64,000 nucleotides of DNA, taken from sequence record CP088595.1. One strand, written 5' to 3'. The position numbers were made by a program, and so were the translations under genes. The notes below the pieces were generated by a model. It saw nothing but the letters and a program-made list of their open reading frames with translations. It ran no database searches and was not told the origin of the DNA. This stretch comes from a plasmid. Below, in pieces: positions 24,028 to 57,891 of this stretch. Within the stretch, counting starts at the first letter, position 1; every line of letters starts with the position of its first letter.

Positions 24028-26265
24028 ATGTCGCCATCCCCCTTAATTAAATCCTGTGTGGCCTTTGCCCATACGCAATTCTATTCCGGAGTTACTGTGA
24101 AAATTTTACTTCGCGCACTCTGTGCAGGCCTTGCTATATCCTCACTGCCGGCAATGGCTTCAGTGACCTATCAGGATATTGTGTCTGCCGCAACCAATCC
24201 TGACGATCTGTCCCGTCAGGCGCTGGTCACGATATTCGGTGATGTAGTCACCAATCCACTGTCAACCAGCGCCCCCACTCTGATCGGAAGCATGTTCGGG
24301 GCGTTCAACAGTATCATCGCCGTACTTGCCGTTGTCTGGTTTATGTTCATTGGTATCCGTCATGTTGTGCGTTCGGGGCATCAGGGACAGGTATTCAGCA
24401 CCGGACGCGATATCGTCGGCACACTGAGTGTCGTTGCAGGTTTTCTGATGATCGTTCCAACCGGAAATGGCTGGAGTATCGCTCAGCTCATTATGTTATG
24501 GGGCGCATCGATAATGGGGGTTGGGTCCGCCAATGTGATGGTGCAACTTGCCGCTGATAATATCGCAAATGGTTATTCAATGACTGTACAGCCAGTTCAG
24601 GCATCCACACGAACAGCAGCGCGTGGCATTTTTGAAATGGAACTGTGTAAGTATGCGGTTAACGCAGGACTAAATGATTTTAATCAGACGGTCAAATCCT
24701 CGACTTCACTGATGACAGAATCAGCTAAAACCGCCAGTGGTAATTACACTGTCACGGTATCCAATGGCAGCGGTATCTGTGGTTCAGCCAGCCTGTCAGT
24801 AGAAGGAAACGGAACAACAGATCAATCGACGATTGGAAAATTCTTTAATCCCTTCAGTAAAAACGAATACAGCGGTGTTATCTCAGCACAACGTGCAGCC
24901 ATGGATAATATGATTAGCGACATGGACAACGCTGCCAGTGAGTTTGTGACAACATTTCTGGAAAAAAGAAATTCTGGCAACGGAACACTGCCGGATATCG
25001 AGACACGAATTCAGAAAGCAGCCGACGAATACGAACGTGCTGTGCAAAAATCGCTACCCACTGATAACGGAGAGCAATCCAGAAAAGAGGCTCTTAAATC
25101 TTATCTCACAACCTACGGGTGGGTAACGCTTGGCGCATGGTATCAGACCTTTGCCACTGCTAACCAGCGTCTGGCAGAGCTGGCTGACAGAGCTCCAGCT
25201 GTAACTTCAATGTCATCACTGGGAGAAGTTGGTGATACTGACTTATTCAGTGCGGTCATGAGTGCCTATAGGACGCAACTGCAGAATTCCTCCTATACGC
25301 CACCGCTGGGCACAGTAGTATCATCCAGTGAACAACGCATGGCAAATGCACAAGATCCGAAATCTGCCTTGTCTGAAATTATGGGCCCCCTTGTTAGTCT
25401 CACTAACAGGATTGCAACGGAAACAAGTGGCACAGGCACAACCAGTGCTCAAATTAATCCTCTGATAAAAATGAAAAATATCGGAGATATAACAATGGTA
25501 AGTGCAGAAGGAATCTGGACTATATATACAACGGCCAGAGTTGTCGTTGCCGGTGGCAAAGATTCAATTCTTGTAAAATTCTTTAACTCACTAACAGGTG
25601 CCGCTTCGATGCTTACCGCGCTGTTTGAAGCACTTGCACCACCTGTTTATTTTCTTTTGTTCCTGATGTTCTGTGCTGGATTTTCCTTATCAATTTACCT
25701 GCCATTCATTCCGTTTATTTTCTGGATGACAGGCATCGGGAACTGGATAGTCAGCGTATTAATAGGATGTACCGCCGGGCCGCTGTGGGCTGCAACACAT
25801 CTCGGGACATCAGAAGACAGAGGAAGTCGGGCAGCCTACGGTTATATATACTTAATTGATAGTATGATAAGGCCGCCCATCATGGTCTTTGGTTTTTTCT
25901 TTGCTTCTGTAGCCATCATCGCCGTAGGCACAATACTGAATGCATTATTTGGCGCTGCCCTGGTTAACGTACAGTTCAATTCGCTGACCGGTATTTTCAG
26001 TCTTGCTGGTTTCTTGCTGATATACGCCAGAATTTGTACAACCACTGTAGCTGCCATATTTGCCCTTCAGGCCTACCTACCTGATCATGTTATTAACTTC
26101 CTAGGGGGACGTGATGGAGCCAACACGCTTGGCAGCATGGCAAATTCTGTTAAAGAAATATTTATTGGAGGAAGTCGCAATATCCGACATACTCCTGGAA
26201 TGAAAACAGATCGTCTTAAAGATAATACAAAAGGAAGTGACGACAAGGACGGAATAAAAGGATAA
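24028..26265 (+). CDS. traY: TraY (745 aa), DotA-like polytopic membrane protein
   Basis: Length equals R64 TraY. Many TM segments. Position. Confidence 0.75.
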   Translation: MSPSPLIKSCVAFAHTQFYSGVTVKILLRALCAGLAISSLPAMASVTYQDIVSAATNPDDLSRQALVTIFGDVVTNPLSTSAPTLIGSMFGAFNSIIAVLAVVWFMFIGIRHVVRSGHQGQVFSTGRDIVGTLSVVAGFLMIVPTGNGWSIAQLIMLWGASIMGVGSANVMVQLAADNIANGYSMTVQPVQASTRTAARGIFEMELCKYAVNAGLNDFNQTVKSSTSLMTESAKTASGNYTVTVSNGSGICGSASLSVEGNGTTDQSTIGKFFNPFSKNEYSGVISAQRAAMDNMISDMDNAASEFVTTFLEKRNSGNGTLPDIETRIQKAADEYERAVQKSLPTDNGEQSRKEALKSYLTTYGWVTLGAWYQTFATANQRLAELADRAPAVTSMSSLGEVGDTDLFSAVMSAYRTQLQNSSYTPPLGTVVSSSEQRMANAQDPKSALSEIMGPLVSLTNRIATETSGTGTTSAQINPLIKMKNIGDITMVSAEGIWTIYTTARVVVAGGKDSILVKFFNSLTGAASMLTALFEALAPPVYFLLFLMFCAGFSLSIYLPFIPFIFWMTGIGNWIVSVLIGCTAGPLWAATHLGTSEDRGSRAAYGYIYLIDSMIRPPIMVFGFFFASVAIIAVGTILNALFGAALVNVQFNSLTGIFSLAGFLLIYARICTTTVAAIFALQAYLPDHVINFLGGRDGANTLGSMANSVKEIFIGGSRNIRHTPGMKTDRLKDNTKGSDDKDGIKG

Positions 26266-26335
26266 TATCAATATAAATATTGCACAACCTCCCCATCGGC
26301 ATTAAAATAATAGATAGTACGAGGGGAGGCATTAT

Positions 26336-26998
26336 ATGAAAGCTAAAAGAGAAACAACAGACAGATTTCCAACCTGGTGGCTATTTTATTATGTATTAAG
26401 AAAAGCTTATTTCTTTCTTGGAATCCCTTTTTTTCTGTTCTGCGCATTAGGCTTTACCGAAATGCTATGTTCTGATCGTTATTTCGGAAATAAGGTCGAA
26501 GATTATGTTGTCACTTTTGGTAGTTGGTTCTTATTACTTGCGCCAGGCATATGGATGTACTCACGTGCAAAAACAAGGAGAGAAAAAATAAGAAAAGTTG
26601 TACAAACAATAAAAGAGTCAGGCTTCTACTCTCCAGAGAAGGGGTATGAAGGATTATCTTTAACTCAGGGAGCTTATTTCGGTATTGACCTTAAAAATGG
26701 CACAATGTTGTATGTCCGTATTTATCCAGGCAACATTATGGATGTTATCGGTTTTGACATTCATAATTTCACTCGTACTGTAACAGACGACAAAACACTG
26801 GAAATTCATACGAAATACATCAACCTGCCAATGGTTCCTATTCCATCATGGTGTACTCATCCAGAAACCGCATCAAACACCATGCACGCGATGGCAAGTC
26901 GAGGATATGATTACCCTGTCGACTTTCCTCGCCTGATTCAGGAAAAGCGTAAGGAGTGGGAGCAGATTGCAGGCATACCTGTAGCCGAAGTATTTTAA
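26336..26998 (+). CDS. excA: Entry-exclusion protein ExcA (220 aa)
   Basis: Length and membrane topology. Position after traY. Confidence 0.7.
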
Positions 26999-27069
26999 GA
27001 TAAGCTCCCTCCATAACAGCCGGTTCAAATGAGCCGGCTTTTGTTCATTACAACAGATAACTTATGCCG

Positions 27070-27285
27070 TTACCGATAAATTCGACCAAGTGCTTTAATC
27101 GCAGCAATTTTTATTTCCATATCATCACTTTGACTCAATCTATGTAATTCACGAGTAATGTTCTCCGCCTGACACCGGCCTTCACCTAATGCATAGATCG
27201 CAGCAAGTGTAACGTCTTTTGATTTACTCTTCATCATTTCAAACAAGAAAGTATTAGCTATCGCAGGAGGCATGCTCATAATCAA
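27070..27285 (-). CDS. Small HEAT/PBS-lyase-repeat protein (71 aa)
   Basis: Two AAIxALG repeats. AAGAGGA RBS 7 nt upstream. AT-rich. Confidence 0.45.
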   Translation of the reverse strand: MIMSMPPAIANTFLFEMMKSKSKDVTLAAIYALGEGRCQAENITRELHRLSQSDDMEIKIAAIKALGRIYR

Positions 27286-27670
27286 TCCTCTTCATGAAAT
27301 AAACAATGGCACTCACTTACAAACAGGAGTCCACTATCGCAAGCGACTCAACTTAGCAATATCTCTCAATTTGAATGAAAAAACCAGATGGCATGTGACA
27401 GGGAACCGTCCGCATGATGTCCGTGACCATTTAACCCCATAAGCTACCCTTGTCACAAACGGGCGCAGAACAGCCTGCCAGACAGACAACAAAACAAAAG
27501 TCCAAGATAAAACATGAATACCGGTATCTCAATGCGAAGAAATAATCTCCGTAGCCCCCCCCATGAGAAAAATATCATATGGGAGAAAATCGCAATTATC
27601 ACAGCCAGCGCATTCATTATTTTCGCTGTGCTCTGGCATTAATTATTTTCAACACAAAAAGGAAAAAACA

Positions 27671-27847
27671 ATGAATCTGGTAGACGCCTTTGTCAAAAAA
27701 GTAATATCCGGGCCATATGAAGAATATGGAAAATGGTGGATAGATGTCGAATACATTTCATGGGGTGTTCCCGGGAAAACAAGACTGATGTTTGAGTCAA
27801 AGGAGCAGGCACTGGAAGTTAAAGAAGGGTACAAATTTTTAACGTGA
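27671..27847 (+). CDS. Hypothetical 58-aa protein
   Basis: AAGGA RBS 9 nt upstream of the ATG. Alternative long form from 27563. Confidence 0.35.
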   Translation: MNLVDAFVKKVISGPYEEYGKWWIDVEYISWGVPGKTRLMFESKEQALEVKEGYKFLT

Positions 27848-27911
27848 GATCTCTTTTTGTTAAAGGGCAGGAAGCGGTAACTCCCTGCCCTTAGTTACGT
27901 TTCCAGGCTTA

Positions 27912-28208
27912 TCAGTCGATAAGTTCCCGGATCAGTTCCAGAACAGCAATCAGCGCGTTTGCAACGGCAACTACTGCCCTGAGAACGATGATTAACAGAT
28001 TAATCATCCGCTTCTCCATCACTGGAGAAAGAACCCCGTTGTTCGCTCTTACACTGCCTGTCACAACGGTTTCTATAGTGTCAGTTATAGACAGTTCTTC
28101 TCCGACCAGAGCACCAAAACCAGCACCACCTGATGTTTTGGCCAGGACTTGCAACCTGTTCTTCCCGCTGAACAATATGTCGGACAGAACATGCCTCAGA
28201 GCTGACAT
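27912..28208 (-). CDS. Hypothetical small membrane protein (98 aa), C-terminal hydrophobic helix
   Basis: ORF with a C-terminal helix INLLIIVLRAVVAVANALIAVL. Confidence 0.35.
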   Translation of the reverse strand: MSALRHVLSDILFSGKNRLQVLAKTSGGAGFGALVGEELSITDTIETVVTGSVRANNGVLSPVMEKRMINLLIIVLRAVVAVANALIAVLELIRELID

Positions 28209-28322
28209 GCCGAGTATACACTTATCCAGTACTTGCAGAAATATAATTCCAGACGTACTATCTACAAGTCAGTTATAGACAGTTCTTTTCCGACCAGAGC
28301 CACCCACTCTGTAACGGAACAG

Positions 28323-28356
28323 TAAAAAAACCGACCTCACCAGTCGGTTTTTTTAC
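28323..28356. terminator. Bidirectional rho-independent terminator
   Basis: AAAAAAACCGAC-ctcacca-GTCGGTTTTTTT. Confidence 0.6.
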
Positions 28357-28507
28357 ATCTGTTGTTTCTCAAAATCCGCCCGACATGCCCGTCACACCGG
28401 GGAAACTCATGCTTTGAATCAGAACCAATCATCTCAACTTTGCCGTCTCCTGAAAAAACTGGCACATTCAGTTCGATAACTACCCATAAATACAGAGAGA
28501 AAATCCG

Positions 28508-28759
28508 ATGTCAGAAAAGTGGAGTAAAGAATTCGACTCTTGCTTTCAGGTGGGGAGCATAGAAGAAATTGCCGATGCTCTCGAGAAACGCAGCGGAAGC
28601 GAGGAAAACGCGTTAGCCATGCTGGCAATGACAGCCTTCACACTCATGACCCGACGTGGTATCTGCGAAATGCAGAACGTGGCCCCCGATGGCAAAGGCA
28701 TTCGGCTGGAGCTAATCGGCTTCAGGGAAAATGAAACAATACCAGATACGCTTCATTGA
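28508..28759 (+). CDS. Hypothetical 83-aa protein
   Basis: ORF with a purine-rich leader. Confidence 0.35.
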   Translation: MSEKWSKEFDSCFQVGSIEEIADALEKRSGSEENALAMLAMTAFTLMTRRGICEMQNVAPDGKGIRLELIGFRENETIPDTLH

Positions 28760-29010
28760 AGAAGAAAGGGCGCAATGAGGTCAGCCTTCGCAACAAAGCG
28801 GCGGCAGAAAACCTGCCGCCGTGTTGCCCGTTAACGTTTAACTTCGTAGGCTAACGTTGCCACAAGCACTGTGTTTCCCTGCTGGAGCCGGAGTCCGCAA
28901 AGCGAATCCCTCACCATCCAGACAAAACACAGAATCGTCACACAGACGACGATTAACATCATTAAAAACGTTCGCTGTGGCATCATAGCCCCTCCATTGC
29001 CTTCCGGCGG

Positions 29011-29182
29011 TTATCGGGCTACTATAATGTTGTTGAGGCATTACAGTAGAGCCCTTGGTTGATTGATAAAAAAATCTCCAGGGGCTTTCTGCTGTATACC
29101 GTCCACAAAACGCTTTCGGCATACAGCCTCAAGCGCCCGCAGCTATTCTAACGACTTTCGTATCTGTAACAATCCTTTTATT
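29011..29182. repeat. Left copy of a ~170-bp direct repeat (about 95% identical to 30431-30602)
   Basis: Aligned by eye. Contains TACTATAAT and two internal inverted repeats. Confidence 0.8.
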
Positions 29183-29297
29183 ATTTGAATGATTCAGCGT
29201 TGTTTTTGAAGTTAACAACCAACCCAATACATGGTTCTCTACTTCACAACAACGCATGTTATGCTGATTTTAGTTAATAAAAGAATCCCCTTAGGAG

Positions 29298-30389
29298 ATG
29301 GAAATGTCGCAGTTAAAACAACCTATTTTCCTGAAAAAGATAAAAAAAGTCATCAACACAATCCCTGGGCTTGAAGAGCAAATCTTTGCATGCCGAAATA
29401 AAAAACGCAGCGACAATCCATTATTATTTATCGACAGAAAAGATGAAGAACGCATACTAATGAGTCGTCTCCAGAGCCAACAAAAAAATGAAGAACTGGC
29501 TTCTAAACTAGAATCTTTATTTCATGGAAACGAATTATCGTCACCACACAGTATTTTGTGTTTTATATACTGGCGCTATACAAAGAAAATTTATCGCCTA
29601 AGCGAGGACATCATCAGTGATGTGGCTAACACCTATGTTGATAACATTCCTGCACAGATCCTCAAGGAACTCCCTTCATGGAGTATCTATGTTTCAGCCG
29701 AAAATCTGCATACTATACTTCCTACGTCCTATCCGATACATGGATTTTTCTTTTATCCATTTTTGGACAATAATGGAAATATTATCCGGCTTTTCATTAT
29801 TGATGATCTGAAACAAAGTCAAGGAACTACAGGGCTAAAAGAAAAGGATGTTGACGTCGTCAATAATATCATCAGAATAAAGGACTCTCGTGAAGGACTT
29901 CTTGACTCCAGAAAGATGGAGTGTATCGATGGTGAAGTCGTCGTAACAGTTAACGAAAAGCTCAAAGATTTCAGAGACAGGGAGTTTAATCTTCTTAACG
30001 CACAGATATCAATGGTGCTTTATATCTGTTCACAGATCAATGATATAAAAGAAAAAAATCAATTTAAACGGTCAGAAAAGCACAAAAAGCATGTTCACAC
30101 TCACCATGAACTACCAGCACAAAACATTCGGGAGTGGGACGTTGGTATTCGAATGGGGCAAGCCATACGGCAATATCGCCAAGCAGAACCCACAGGGAAA
30201 GAGCGGACAACAATAGGTAGCAAACGTCCTCATATACGCCGGGGACACTGGCATACATACTGGACAGGAAGTAAGAAACCAGAACTAGCCCATGAGCGTA
30301 AACCTAGATTAATATGGTTACCTCCGGTACCAGTTAATTTAGAAGACGTAAACAAACTACCGGTGGTAATAACACCCATTGATAAATGA
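29298..30389 (+). CDS. Orphan 363-aa protein, AT-rich, no recognisable domain
   Basis: Long clean ORF with a GGAG RBS. Lys/Ile/Asn-rich composition, different from the backbone. Confidence 0.6.
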   Translation: MEMSQLKQPIFLKKIKKVINTIPGLEEQIFACRNKKRSDNPLLFIDRKDEERILMSRLQSQQKNEELASKLESLFHGNELSSPHSILCFIYWRYTKKIYRLSEDIISDVANTYVDNIPAQILKELPSWSIYVSAENLHTILPTSYPIHGFFFYPFLDNNGNIIRLFIIDDLKQSQGTTGLKEKDVDVVNNIIRIKDSREGLLDSRKMECIDGEVVVTVNEKLKDFRDREFNLLNAQISMVLYICSQINDIKEKNQFKRSEKHKKHVHTHHELPAQNIREWDVGIRMGQAIRQYRQAEPTGKERTTIGSKRPHIRRGHWHTYWTGSKKPELAHERKPRLIWLPPVPVNLEDVNKLPVVITPIDK

Positions 30390-30430
30390 CCTGAAAAGTA
30401 TCTTTTCCGGTAGGATGTACACATATCTAA

Positions 30431-30602
30431 ATTATCAGGCTACTATAATGTTGTCTAGGCATTACAGTAGAGCCCTTGGTTGATTGATAAAAAATCTCCA
30501 GGGGGCTTTCTGCTGTATACCATCCACAAAACGCTTTCGGCATACAGCCTCAAGCGTCCGCGGCTATTCTAACGACTTTCGTATCTGCAACAATCCTTTT
30601 AT
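30431..30602. repeat. Right copy of the ~170-bp direct repeat
   Basis: See left copy. Confidence 0.8.
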
Positions 30603-30695
30603 CACACGGCTAATTCCTCTGGTTAGCTCTTATCGCCTGCAAATAAATTTTTAACCTTTCCGTTTGATTTAAATTCCAGAAATGGAGACTTTGTC

Positions 30696-31904
30696 ATGTC
30701 TTACAATCGACAGCCTGTCGCAGAAGATCCTATGCAGATATGGGGCGCTGTTGGTGTCCTTCTTATCCTGCTGCTATTCGTCATATGGTTATTCTTGCCG
30801 GAAGTGGTTTACGCCAGCTGCCTGATTCTTCATACCTTATGGGGACTGGTTGACTGGGGACCATTTCATAACTATGCAGCACCACGATACAACCTGCTTG
30901 CCATGACCGGTAACAACGCCGCCAACATAAGCTATAGCCAGTGGGTTAACGTCATGGAGCAGACCATAGGTATTTTGTGGATGTACCTCTTACCTGTGAC
31001 ACTCTGGTGTTTGTGGGAATGGTATCAACATCCGGGACAAAGCCGTTTCACCCGCAGACCAGTAGATATTACCCGACTGCCACACATCTTTGCTTCGTTG
31101 TCCCCTGCTATCGCCCCTGTACTGGAAGATGGTGATCCGGAAAAACTCTTTCATGGTGGTAAACGACCTGAACGGCGGGTTGCTCTCACCCCGGAAGCAT
31201 TTGTCGAACAGCATACTCTCATCACCAATATGCAGCTCGATGTTGCAGCTGCAAGACGATGTTTCATGGCCCAGTTGGGTAAACCTTTAACGTCCTGGAA
31301 AGACATGGCACCACATGAAAAAGCGCTCTTTGCCATATTTGGCCTTCAGTATTTCCTGGATGATCGGAAGGCAGCATTAAAGCTCATGGATACACTGAAC
31401 CTCTCATGCAGAATTAAAAGCAAACGGGACAGCGGGAAATTCTGTACCCCTGTTTATTCACTGGCCAAATCAGCTTTCCAGAGAGTGATTAAAAGCAACG
31501 GAGCACAGCAATGGCTGAAACAACATCGCTACGTCCGCAGTGGGCTGGTCTGGCTGTATGCACATGACCTGCGGCTTACGCCACCCAACTGGATTTGGCT
31601 GAAAGGCGTGGACAGAACGCTGTTTTATGCATTACACCGCGCCAATACCACGAAAGGATTTATTGAAGGCGCTGGCGTGGTGGCCGTTGCACGTGCAGAG
31701 GCCGAAGCCATGCGTTTTGGCCTTCCCTGCCCTGAACCCTGTGTTGATGAAGCGGTGGAAGGCTTACGGCGGGATATGCTCAGTCTCGGTCTTATCTGGG
31801 ATGAACCACAACCAGATCGCGACCGGAAACGCCGCATCCTGACCAACTGGTCCCTCACCGAAGACATCCTGCCCCGTACACCTGCTACAGACAACGAATT
31901 CTGA
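30696..31904 (+). CDS. trbA: TrbA (402 aa), DotM-like membrane protein
   Basis: Two N-terminal TM segments. Position before trbB/trbC. Confidence 0.65.
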   Translation: MSYNRQPVAEDPMQIWGAVGVLLILLLFVIWLFLPEVVYASCLILHTLWGLVDWGPFHNYAAPRYNLLAMTGNNAANISYSQWVNVMEQTIGILWMYLLPVTLWCLWEWYQHPGQSRFTRRPVDITRLPHIFASLSPAIAPVLEDGDPEKLFHGGKRPERRVALTPEAFVEQHTLITNMQLDVAAARRCFMAQLGKPLTSWKDMAPHEKALFAIFGLQYFLDDRKAALKLMDTLNLSCRIKSKRDSGKFCTPVYSLAKSAFQRVIKSNGAQQWLKQHRYVRSGLVWLYAHDLRLTPPNWIWLKGVDRTLFYALHRANTTKGFIEGAGVVAVARAEAEAMRFGLPCPEPCVDEAVEGLRRDMLSLGLIWDEPQPDRDRKRRILTNWSLTEDILPRTPATDNEF

Positions 31905-31922
31905 TTATCCGGAGAACTGAAA

Positions 31923-32993
31923 ATGACAATCGAGTACTTTGCAACACGCATTGCAAAACATATTTCCGTGCAGGCAATCTGGCCGGATGGCAGGACAGAA
32001 ATTATTGCCGTCCTTCCACAGGATGCCCTGTCAGGGCTGGTAACACGAAATAATCAACTGATTCATATAGCCTTTGACGCCATGGGCACCCGTAACAGAG
32101 AAACCGTCCTGATTGATAAACAGGAGCATAACGCTGACCAGATACTTACAGCTATTGATTCCTGCCTGCGCCTTGAATACCTGATGGAACGCCGCTTCAG
32201 CAGAACACCTTTGTTCCGTGGCATAATCGCCAGCGTTGTGCTGTTCGTAATGGCAACGATTGGCTTCTCTCTGTTCCGCTATGTTGATCGTGTATTCTGG
32301 GATGATACAACGCCTGAAGCAGTACAGACAGCAGGTGAGCCACGACTGCTTCCCCCTCACCTGAATCACACTGTGCCATTAAATGAAGGCATTCAACTCC
32401 CGGTTCCCCCGAAAAAAGACGTTCAGGTACCGGAGAAAACAATCACAAGCAAAAATCCGGAAGCCGCAGCTGCGCGACATAATCTGGCTACTGTTCTGAA
32501 GCGGAACGCCGATCGGGGCATGTTTACCATCAACCTGTCATCCGGTCATGAACGAACCCTGTACGCATTTCTCGATCCTGCCTGTCCTAACTGCAGACTT
32601 CTGGAGCCGGCTTTAAAACGCCTGGCCAGCGACTTCAATGTCGTTATCTACCCGGTTTCCGTTATTGGTGGAGAGGAATCCACCGACCGTGTGGCACCAC
32701 TGCTGTGTGAAAAAGATGCTCAGAAACGTGCTGCTGGCTGGCACCGACTGTATTCCGCAGATAACGGAATGATGACGCCATCAGAAGAAACAACGCCTGC
32801 AGATGAAACATGCCTGAAAGCAGCCAGAGCTGCGATTGATGTTAACAATGTCGCCTTCCGTAAGTTCGGATTTGCCGGTACCCCATGGGTGCTGTCCGAC
32901 ACGGGCTGGCATCTGCCTACTGGAATTCTGCAGGAAACTGGCACGCTTAATTTATTCCTGAAAACCACCGACAGCGAGTCTGGCCATGAGTGA
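31923..32993 (+). CDS. trbB: TrbB (356 aa), thioredoxin-fold disulfide isomerase-like
   Basis: CxxC motif DPACPNCRL. TM segment. Position. Confidence 0.7.
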   Translation: MTIEYFATRIAKHISVQAIWPDGRTEIIAVLPQDALSGLVTRNNQLIHIAFDAMGTRNRETVLIDKQEHNADQILTAIDSCLRLEYLMERRFSRTPLFRGIIASVVLFVMATIGFSLFRYVDRVFWDDTTPEAVQTAGEPRLLPPHLNHTVPLNEGIQLPVPPKKDVQVPEKTITSKNPEAAAARHNLATVLKRNADRGMFTINLSSGHERTLYAFLDPACPNCRLLEPALKRLASDFNVVIYPVSVIGGEESTDRVAPLLCEKDAQKRAAGWHRLYSADNGMMTPSEETTPADETCLKAARAAIDVNNVAFRKFGFAGTPWVLSDTGWHLPTGILQETGTLNLFLKTTDSESGHE

Positions 32994-57875: not shown

Positions 57876-57891
57876 CTGTATATGCATACAG
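57876..57891 (+). promoter_or_regulatory. LexA (SOS) box CTGTATATGCATACAG upstream of impCAB
   Basis: Perfect CTGT-N8-ACAG palindrome. Confidence 0.75.

Follow-up and report, generated by a model that had tools for sequence, protein, structure and literature searches.

The excA–trbA interval of an IncI1 plasmid: a standard backbone spacer with one accessory gene, finQ

In the 64,000-nucleotide stretch of plasmid DNA analyzed here (sequence record CP088595.1; hereafter the window), 3,697 bp (positions 26999–30695) separate the surface exclusion gene excA (26336–26998, + strand; boundary from the RefSeq annotation of the identical region of plasmid pEK204) from trbA (30696–31904, + strand). The question raised by this locus is whether the interval is a foreign island or part of the plasmid's own backbone. 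The original prediction, made from the sequence, held that excA and trbA are close neighbors in R64 and that the 3.7 kb between them had been inserted as AT-rich accessory DNA. We find that the interval as a whole is best explained as the standard maintenance and competition spacer of IncI1 plasmids, carrying one accessory gene, finQ. We assign this reading a probability of about 0.9.

A 6-kb query (26000–32000) matched dozens of IncI1 plasmids, among them pEK204 (NC_013120), with 100% identity, identifying the window as an IncI1 plasmid; 2,178 plasmid records were matched in total. In RefSeq, the genes of pEK204 from excA to trbA encode a HEAT-repeat protein, a hypothetical protein, DqlB, a second hypothetical protein, a Hok/Gef-family protein and FinQ. 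In R64 (NC_005014), excA and trbA are 2,274 bp apart, with the genes for the HEAT-repeat protein, a 58-residue protein, DqlB, an 83-residue protein and the Hok/Gef protein inside. In ColIb-P9 (NC_002122), the distance is 2,539 bp and the genes are the same, minus an annotated dqlB. The two genes are thus not close together in either reference plasmid. The backbone genes of the spacer occur in the same order in both, with 97–99% identity. Alignment to R64 by blastn was collinear, with 97.8% identity over 26201–28150 and 98.8% over 28289–29181, and resumed at 30432. The window differs from R64 by a 138-bp allelic segment (28151–28288) and by 1,250 bp (29182–30431) missing in R64. Both 26999–29181 and 30603–30695 are present in R64 and in ColIb-P9, and what is extra relative to them amounts to 1,421 bp, made up of the 1,250-bp finQ unit and one copy of a 171-bp direct repeat. 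The features listed in the prediction (a HEAT-repeat gene, open reading frames (ORFs) of 58, 98 and 83 codons, a hairpin and direct repeats) were all found where they had been placed. The HEAT-repeat gene, the three ORFs, the hairpin and the Hok/Gef gene are also present in the R64/ColIb-P9 spacer, so that about 62% of the interval is canonical IncI1 backbone with the same content at the same position. What stands of the proposed insertion is the 1,421-bp finQ segment, which holds the most AT-rich part of the interval and had not been identified.

Composition is the main argument for taking the whole 3.7 kb as a foreign AT-rich island between otherwise adjacent genes. The G+C content of the interval is 42.6%, compared to 51.1% for the window and about 50–51% for trbABC and the flanking 10 kb, and the interval contains small genes on both strands as well as repeats. 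The contrast is real but uneven: the finQ unit has a G+C content of 38.5%, the part shared with R64 45.1%, and the region of the pnd genes (described below) together with the 83-residue gene about 50%. Low values are also reached outside the interval, in excA (39.2%) and traY (47%). No integrase or transposase was found in the interval in the ORF list, the pEK204 annotation or a Pfam scan, and no att-like or transposon-type ends were found; the boundaries of the finQ unit are formed by the 171-bp homologous repeat (92% identity) and not by short target duplications. The literature also places pnd between exc and trbABC, in the transfer region of R64 (PMC2887853). As R64 and ColIb-P9 carry this content in this position too, over 2.27 kb and 2.54 kb respectively, the alignments refute the island view of the whole interval, and we give it almost no credence.

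The finQ unit (29182–30431, + strand, 1,250 bp) is the sole segment missing from both R64 and ColIb-P9. It contains the largest ORF of the interval, open from 29298 to 30389, which was overlooked when the interval was said to consist largely of apparently non-coding stretches. A Shine–Dalgarno sequence, AGGAG, at 29293–29297 directly adjoins the first ATG (29298), with 6 nt separating it from the second (29304); its position favors the second start and therefore a FinQ protein of 361 residues (29304–30389). This length agrees with the published description (PMC8004404), and the homologues in Kosakonia and Serratia are also 361 residues long. The protein is 83% identical to UniProt entry FINQ_ECOLX, and its precomputed Pfam family is PF26125, AcrVA2-like. 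Comparison with AcrVA2 (PDB 7ci1) gave an E-value of 3.9e-17, with matches at residues 85–160 and 232–347 and an identical KRPHIRRGHWH stretch, in line with a report that FinQ is an AcrVA2 homologue (bioRxiv 10.1101/2022.11.29.518452). The protein annotated by the Prokaryotic Genome Annotation Pipeline (PGAP) has only 259 residues (WP_275450201.1; 29610–30389). It starts at residue 105 of the long ORF, cutting into the N-terminal sequence conserved with AcrVA2 (residues 85–160).

FinQ has been described as an inhibitor of F tra expression and as the fertility inhibitor of R820a and other IncI1 plasmids (PMC8744291). As with the other genes discussed here, we take the function from work on homologues: FinQ would lower the level of F-plasmid tra mRNA and thereby inhibit transfer of a co-resident F plasmid. 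The Kosakonia and Serratia homologues are 73–77% identical to FinQ, and the DNA homology is confined to the gene itself (29267–30394); the surrounding contexts are unrelated and contain no leader repeats. On the Kosakonia chromosome (CP025697; locus L010 in our comparison), the homologue adjoins a CAP12-PCTIR TIR-domain gene near an integrase, and on two Serratia contigs (L011 and L012) it adjoins colicin M and YebF-like genes.

On its left, the finQ unit borders the pnd transcription unit (28790–29138, − strand, 3′ end approximate), a member of the hok/sok family. The toxin gene pndA (28831–28983, − strand) matched Pfam HOK_GEF (PF01848) with 46.4 bits (cut-off 22, E 2.9e-12, for 28831–28986), and PGAP annotates a Hok/Gef family protein here in pEK204. 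The leader matched positions 1–157 of the Rfam sok model (RF01794) with 132.8 bits (gathering threshold 59) at 28981–29138 (− strand). A promoter-like sequence, TTGTTA-16-TAGAAT, at 29172–29145 gives a predicted mRNA start at 29138, which is also the first position of the sok match, and a GC-rich hairpin (28821–28799) lies at the 3′ end. A pndC-like (mok-like) frame is open over 29122–28838 (− strand) and overlaps pndA. Its start is presumably the AUG at 29041–29039, directly opposite the predicted 5′ end of the antisense RNA PndB. The putative PndB gene (about 29032–29091, + strand) was assigned by analogy with Sok, with promoter and terminator read from the sequence. By the same analogy, the stable toxin mRNA would be kept silent by the short-lived PndB antisense RNA covering the pndC translation start; upon loss of the plasmid, the antisense RNA would decay and PndA would kill the cell.

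The two copies of the 171-bp direct repeat, at 29011–29181 and 30432–30602, are 92% identical and bracket the finQ unit. When both were aligned with R64 and ColIb-P9, the repeat was found to begin about 8 nt upstream of the pnd −35 hexamer and to end at leader position +128. Copy 1 consists of the pnd promoter and leader nucleotides 1–128 and runs on into pndA. Copy 2 continues on its promoter side into the R64-type upstream region of trbA, 93 bp from that gene, and on its other side into the 3′ end of the finQ unit, and therefore has no toxin ORF: it is an orphan pnd promoter and leader with a PndB-like antisense region. It matched the Rfam sok model with 86.4 bits (30402–30559, − strand), the last 30 nt being diverged. 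The same R64 sequence aligns to both copies, showing that R64 has a single one. Because of the duplication, the divergent control regions of pnd and trbA are both intact despite the insertion between them.

From this anatomy we infer that homologous recombination inside the pnd leader, by single crossover or unequal exchange, is the route by which the finQ unit entered and by which it is exchanged or lost. Such an event would leave a whole pnd control region on the toxin side and the trbA upstream region with an orphan leader on the other. One base of the −35 hexamer was A in 9/9 leader copies with a cassette upstream and G in 32/32 with trbA upstream, the pattern expected after a crossover near the promoter end of the homology. 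As to the source of the orphan leader, no plasmid exceeded 97.7% identity to a chimeric query in which the copy 2 leader was joined to pndA. Three metagenome contigs that seemed to carry the orphan leader in a new context turned out to be IS1- or IS21-bounded remnants of the finQ-side copy.

As to direction, acquisition of finQ is favored by the low G+C content of the unit, by its being more conserved than its flanks (99.5–99.6% identity between plasmids whose flanks are only 97.7–98.9% identical), and by the homologues in other genera without leader repeats. Alternatively, finQ and the two leader copies could be ancestral in IncI1, with R64- and ColIb-type plasmids arising by deletion between the 171-bp repeats. 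Loss of a repeat-flanked segment by recombination is to be expected, and the single leader of finQ-negative plasmids has the trbA-side −35 base (G) while otherwise resembling the toxin-side copy, which is exactly what such a deletion would give. Moreover, finQ occurs in diverse IncI backbones (IncI1, IncI-gamma/K1 and a pESI-like megaplasmid). An ancestral finQ does not sit well, however, with a unit that is more AT-rich and better conserved than its surroundings and has relatives elsewhere without leader repeats, nor with the different cargo gene in the same slot of other IncI plasmids. We consider ancestry possible, though not probable. Besides acquisition, later losses of finQ are likely.

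The suggestion that the locus might be a recurrent variable spot was borne out. The finQ unit was found in 517 plasmid records, 514 of them at ≥99% identity, while the pnd leader and toxin were found in about 1,800. In roughly one in four finQ records, the match starts only at position 459 of the unit (window 29640). In pKPC-LKEc (NC_022885, L009), the reason is an insertion in finQ, at this same position, of a unit with the order ISEcp1-(IS3-family element)-blaCMY-2-blc-sugE; the same kind of ISEcp1 insertion into finQ has been published for blaCMY-42. Other records have IS1, IS100, IS3 or IS200/IS605 insertions at the locus. The slot between pnd and trbA can also hold a different cargo, seen in two metagenome contigs (L022 and L028) with an 84-nt partial duplicate of the pnd leader: a 328-residue protein that matches HTH_3 weakly and has a FitA-like ribbon-helix-helix domain (PF22513, 28.2 bits). 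About 100 plasmid records matched this cargo at ≥95% identity, and homologues with 40% identity are found on Klebsiella plasmids. The presence of finQ lengthens the trbA-pndC locus used in plasmid multilocus sequence typing (PMC2887853), and in many resistance plasmids the slot is the landing place of blaCMY-2 and blaCMY-42 transposition units.

The second toxin–antitoxin module of the spacer is dqlB/AgrB. The dqlB gene (27912–28007, − strand) encodes a 31-residue DinQ-like type I toxin, annotated by PGAP in both pEK204 and R64, which matched the NCBIfam equivalog NF041473 with 67.8 bits (cut-off 35). The 98-codon ORF of the original prediction (27912–28208, − strand) is the dqlB frame spuriously extended upstream and has no family match as a whole. 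The adjacent AgrB-family antitoxin small RNA (sRNA) gene (28269–28356, + strand) gave a full-length match to Rfam RF02891 with 53.7 bits (gathering threshold 40). A 33-nt direct repeat (28080–28112 and 28268–28300, 97% identical) corresponds to the 5′ end of this sRNA and to its pairing site in the 5′ untranslated region (UTR) of the dqlB mRNA (28081–28112, − strand), the two matching at 31/32 nt. The hairpin at 28322–28356, with a perfect 14-bp stem, a 7-nt loop and A/T runs on both sides, had been taken for a strong bidirectional terminator; it is identified here as the terminator of the AgrB sRNA. A promoter-like site, TTGCAG-17-TACTAT, is located upstream of the sRNA gene at 28231–28259, as judged by resemblance to the consensus. 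In the mechanism known from homologues, the dqlB transcript's 5′ UTR would be bound over about 32 nt by the divergently transcribed AgrB sRNA. No LexA box (CTGT-N8-ACAG) was found in the interval, the sole match in the window being at 57876, which gives no indication of SOS control of the dinQ kind; such control is defining for dinQ itself and not for the dql family. The DqlB-type toxin–antitoxin family was defined in 2016 (PMC5066626), and in 2025 work on pOXA-48 validated dqlB-agrB as an addiction module there and located it on 67.4% of IncI1 plasmids (PMC12365149). In two metagenome contigs (L033 and L048), the AgrB gene begins only 74 nt from the dqlB ATG and the C-terminus of DqlB is altered (RQFID); apparently, the DNA that lies between the 33-nt repeats has been lost.

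Three small backbone proteins complete the gene content. The HEAT-repeat mini-protein (27070–27279, − strand; 69–70 residues) has two repeats, seen in the gene as an internal repeat with 99-nt spacing, and matched Pfam HEAT_2 with 31.5 bits (cut-off 27.7, E 2.2e-7); the annotations of R64, ColIb-P9 and pEK204 all contain the identical protein (WP_000062603.1). The conserved 58-residue protein (27671–27847, + strand) is the form annotated in R64, a 94-codon ORF from 27563 being an upstream extension of it. It matched phrog_8110 (function unknown) over its full length with an E-value of 1.9e-19, its sole match in Pfam, NCBIfam, PHROGs and PADLOC. The conserved 83-residue protein (28508–28759, + strand) is identical to one annotated in R64 and has no family in Pfam, NCBIfam, PHROG or PADLOC. 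The genes for the 58- and 83-residue proteins and the 98-codon ORF had been called orphans; the first two are present in R64 as well, and the third contains the DqlB toxin. AlphaFold2 models had a predicted local distance difference test score (pLDDT) of 78.8 for the 58-residue protein and 66 for the 83-residue protein, the latter with three helices and a hairpin. OB-like and winged-helix-like resemblances of the two models are not claimed, because the best Foldseek matches to the PDB had non-significant E-values of 0.29 and 1.3, respectively. Searches of large databases with both proteins returned only close IncI-type relatives.

It might be argued that the 58-, 83- and 98-codon ORFs and the repeats are chance features of a non-coding spacer, as the lack of a family match for the 98-codon ORF as a whole and the many truncated variants of the 58- and 83-residue proteins in databases could suggest. 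The full-length PHROG match speaks against this, as does the conservation of length, with conservative substitutions, among homologues of the 58-residue protein (79–83% identity) and of the 83-residue protein (75–87% identity). The repeats, for their part, fall on RNA genes that are supported by Rfam matches, and they vary together with their targets. A chance origin is therefore unlikely, and the 58- and 83-residue proteins are probably products of real genes, as judged from their sequences.

In the remainder of the interval, a terminator-like hairpin with a 9-bp stem followed by a T run (27018–27039) lies between the convergent excA and HEAT genes. The 390 bp between the HEAT and 58-residue genes (27280–27670) are among the best-conserved parts, with 0.5–1.6% mismatches; they contain several promoter-like sites on the minus strand, no supported ORF and no Rfam match. 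An Rfam scan of 26800–30900 with E-values up to 1 returned the two sok matches, AgrB and a sub-threshold OrzO-P match overlapping AgrB, and nothing else.

We found no evidence contradicting the gene content described here, and collinearity with R64 and ColIb-P9 supports a backbone spacer with one accessory gene. Several points weigh against parts of this reading. The 259-residue PGAP annotation conflicts with the 361-residue FinQ that we favor, and the HEAT, 58- and 83-residue proteins are without a function assigned from family libraries or predicted folds. The promoters of PndB, AgrB and finQ were recognized only by their resemblance to the consensus. With a difference of 8% between them, the two repeat copies are not a simple target-site duplication. 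Finally, the polymorphisms of the −35 hexamer and the repeat do not decide the direction of the finQ event, since recombination between the repeats would produce one and the same pattern in a gain and in a loss.

Variation among related loci was then considered using 40 metagenome contigs carrying the pnd leader, combined with plasmid loci. Across about 30 loci, only two zones were hypervariable: excA, with 9–19% mismatches (about 25–30 loci compared), and the dqlB 5′ UTR/AgrB 5′ region, with 19–28%; elsewhere, values were mostly 0.5–4%. The variability of excA is consistent with the known exclusion-specificity variants. The AgrB types were compared between the window (28081–28112 and 28269–28300), R64 (L005), ColIb-P9 (L007), L014 and L017–L056. 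At least four types of the 5′ recognition region of the sRNA can be distinguished: A (TCAGTTATAGACAG), B (TTAGTTGAAAAGAG), C (TTAGATACAGACTG) and D (GTCAGTTGTAGAGAG). The genes for AgrB have a modular build, with an average identity of 87% in the 3′ 56 nt and of just 47% in the 5′ 32 nt. In 27/27 dqlB-bearing loci, the pairing site in the dqlB 5′ UTR co-varies with the type of the adjacent AgrB gene, matching it at 24–32 of the 32 nt, compared to 18–21/32 for non-adjacent copies of the same locus. At 15 loci, three AgrB genes that differ in type (C, B′ and A′) form a full array; 13 of these loci lack dqlB. ColIb-P9 is among these 13 (array at 1686–2392 of the reverse complement, L007); arrays are also listed for L015, L019, L024, L028, L029, L036, L037, L041, L051, L053 and L056. 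The ColIb-P9-type arrays looked at also contain a truncated extra pnd leader.

The pnd leader has a variable site of its own, a 4-nt hot spot directly after the pndC start codon and opposite the predicted PndB 5′ end (29034–29037 in copy 1 and 30455–30458 in copy 2); the search pattern fixed its flanks, so its variability relative to them rests on a smaller full-length alignment. Only four haplotypes, CTAG, TTCG, CTCA and ATGA, occurred among 51 leader copies. In the window, the toxin-linked copy 1 has CTCA and the orphan copy 2 has CTAG, and in most cases the orphan and toxin-linked copies of one plasmid are not alike at this site. CTAG is also found on toxin-linked pnd loci, for example on the plasmid of S. 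Typhimurium ST4/74.

In both systems, then, the recognition end of the antitoxin RNA (the AgrB 5′ 32 nt and the 4-nt site at the predicted PndB 5′ end) is hypervariable and changes along with its own toxin mRNA, and antitoxin genes without a toxin gather at the locus. Taken together, these sequence patterns suggest that recognition specificity is diversifying and that orphan antitoxins are retained, a reading that applies equally to the window and to its relatives. We found no description of either in the literature searched. Going further, the excA–trbA spacer might be the site of an arms race between incompatible IncI plasmids, in which orphan antitoxins neutralize the addiction toxin of a rival. 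An orphan antitoxin gene of the rival's type, if expressed, would neutralize the rival's toxin and allow the rival to be displaced without death of the host, a form of anti-addiction or cross-immunity. We regard this as speculative and rather doubtful. Alternatively, the orphan leader may have diverged at its recognition site to avoid titrating the cognate antitoxin. The co-varying recognition types and the toxin-less antitoxin arrays could make plasmid–plasmid competition via the specificity of type I toxin–antitoxin systems directly testable.

Much of what the locus contains is already known. A 1,250-bp FinQ insert and a duplicated 173-bp sequence relative to R64 have been described (PMC8004404), and the length variation of trbA-pndC and the ISEcp1-blaCMY insertions in finQ are published as well. 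Since the pnd and dqlB/agrB modules and finQ have been characterized and the region is annotated in RefSeq, the finding as originally framed matters little. In practical terms, automatic annotation shortens FinQ to 259 residues, at the expense of the region conserved with AcrVA2, and the duplicated sequence is a second promoter, leader and putative antisense copy of an addiction system. Published accounts call this piece "intergenic", whereas we identify it as the pnd promoter, leader and antisense region.

Comparison with known systems places each part of the locus. The pnd unit resembles hok/sok of plasmid R1 in its Hok/Gef toxin, overlapping mok-like frame, leader matching the sok model from first to last position and 3′ hairpin. 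It differs in belonging to another allele family, in having a second, toxin-less copy of the leader, and in the 4-nt hypervariable site after the pndC start. Like dinQ/agrB of E. coli K-12 and dqlB/agrB of pOXA-48, the dqlB/AgrB locus combines a small hydrophobic toxin with a divergent sRNA and about 32 nt of complementarity; in contrast to dinQ, no LexA box was found with it, and it is plasmid-borne and occurs in at least four recognition types. R64 shares this module, with a type B allele where the window has type A (segment 28151–28288), whereas ColIb-P9 has a toxin-less array of three AgrB genes and a truncated leader in place of dqlB and a single AgrB gene. FinQ is similar to AcrVA2, an anti-CRISPR protein of Moraxella bovoculi mobile elements, in N-terminal residues 85–160 and C-terminal residues 232–347, but it is known for inhibition of F transfer and not of Cas12a, and the N-terminal part corresponding to target recognition has diverged. 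Compared to the finQ-positive IncI1 plasmids R820a, pEK204 and the "RD1" plasmids of PMC8004404, the window shows no structural difference: its architecture is identical to theirs.

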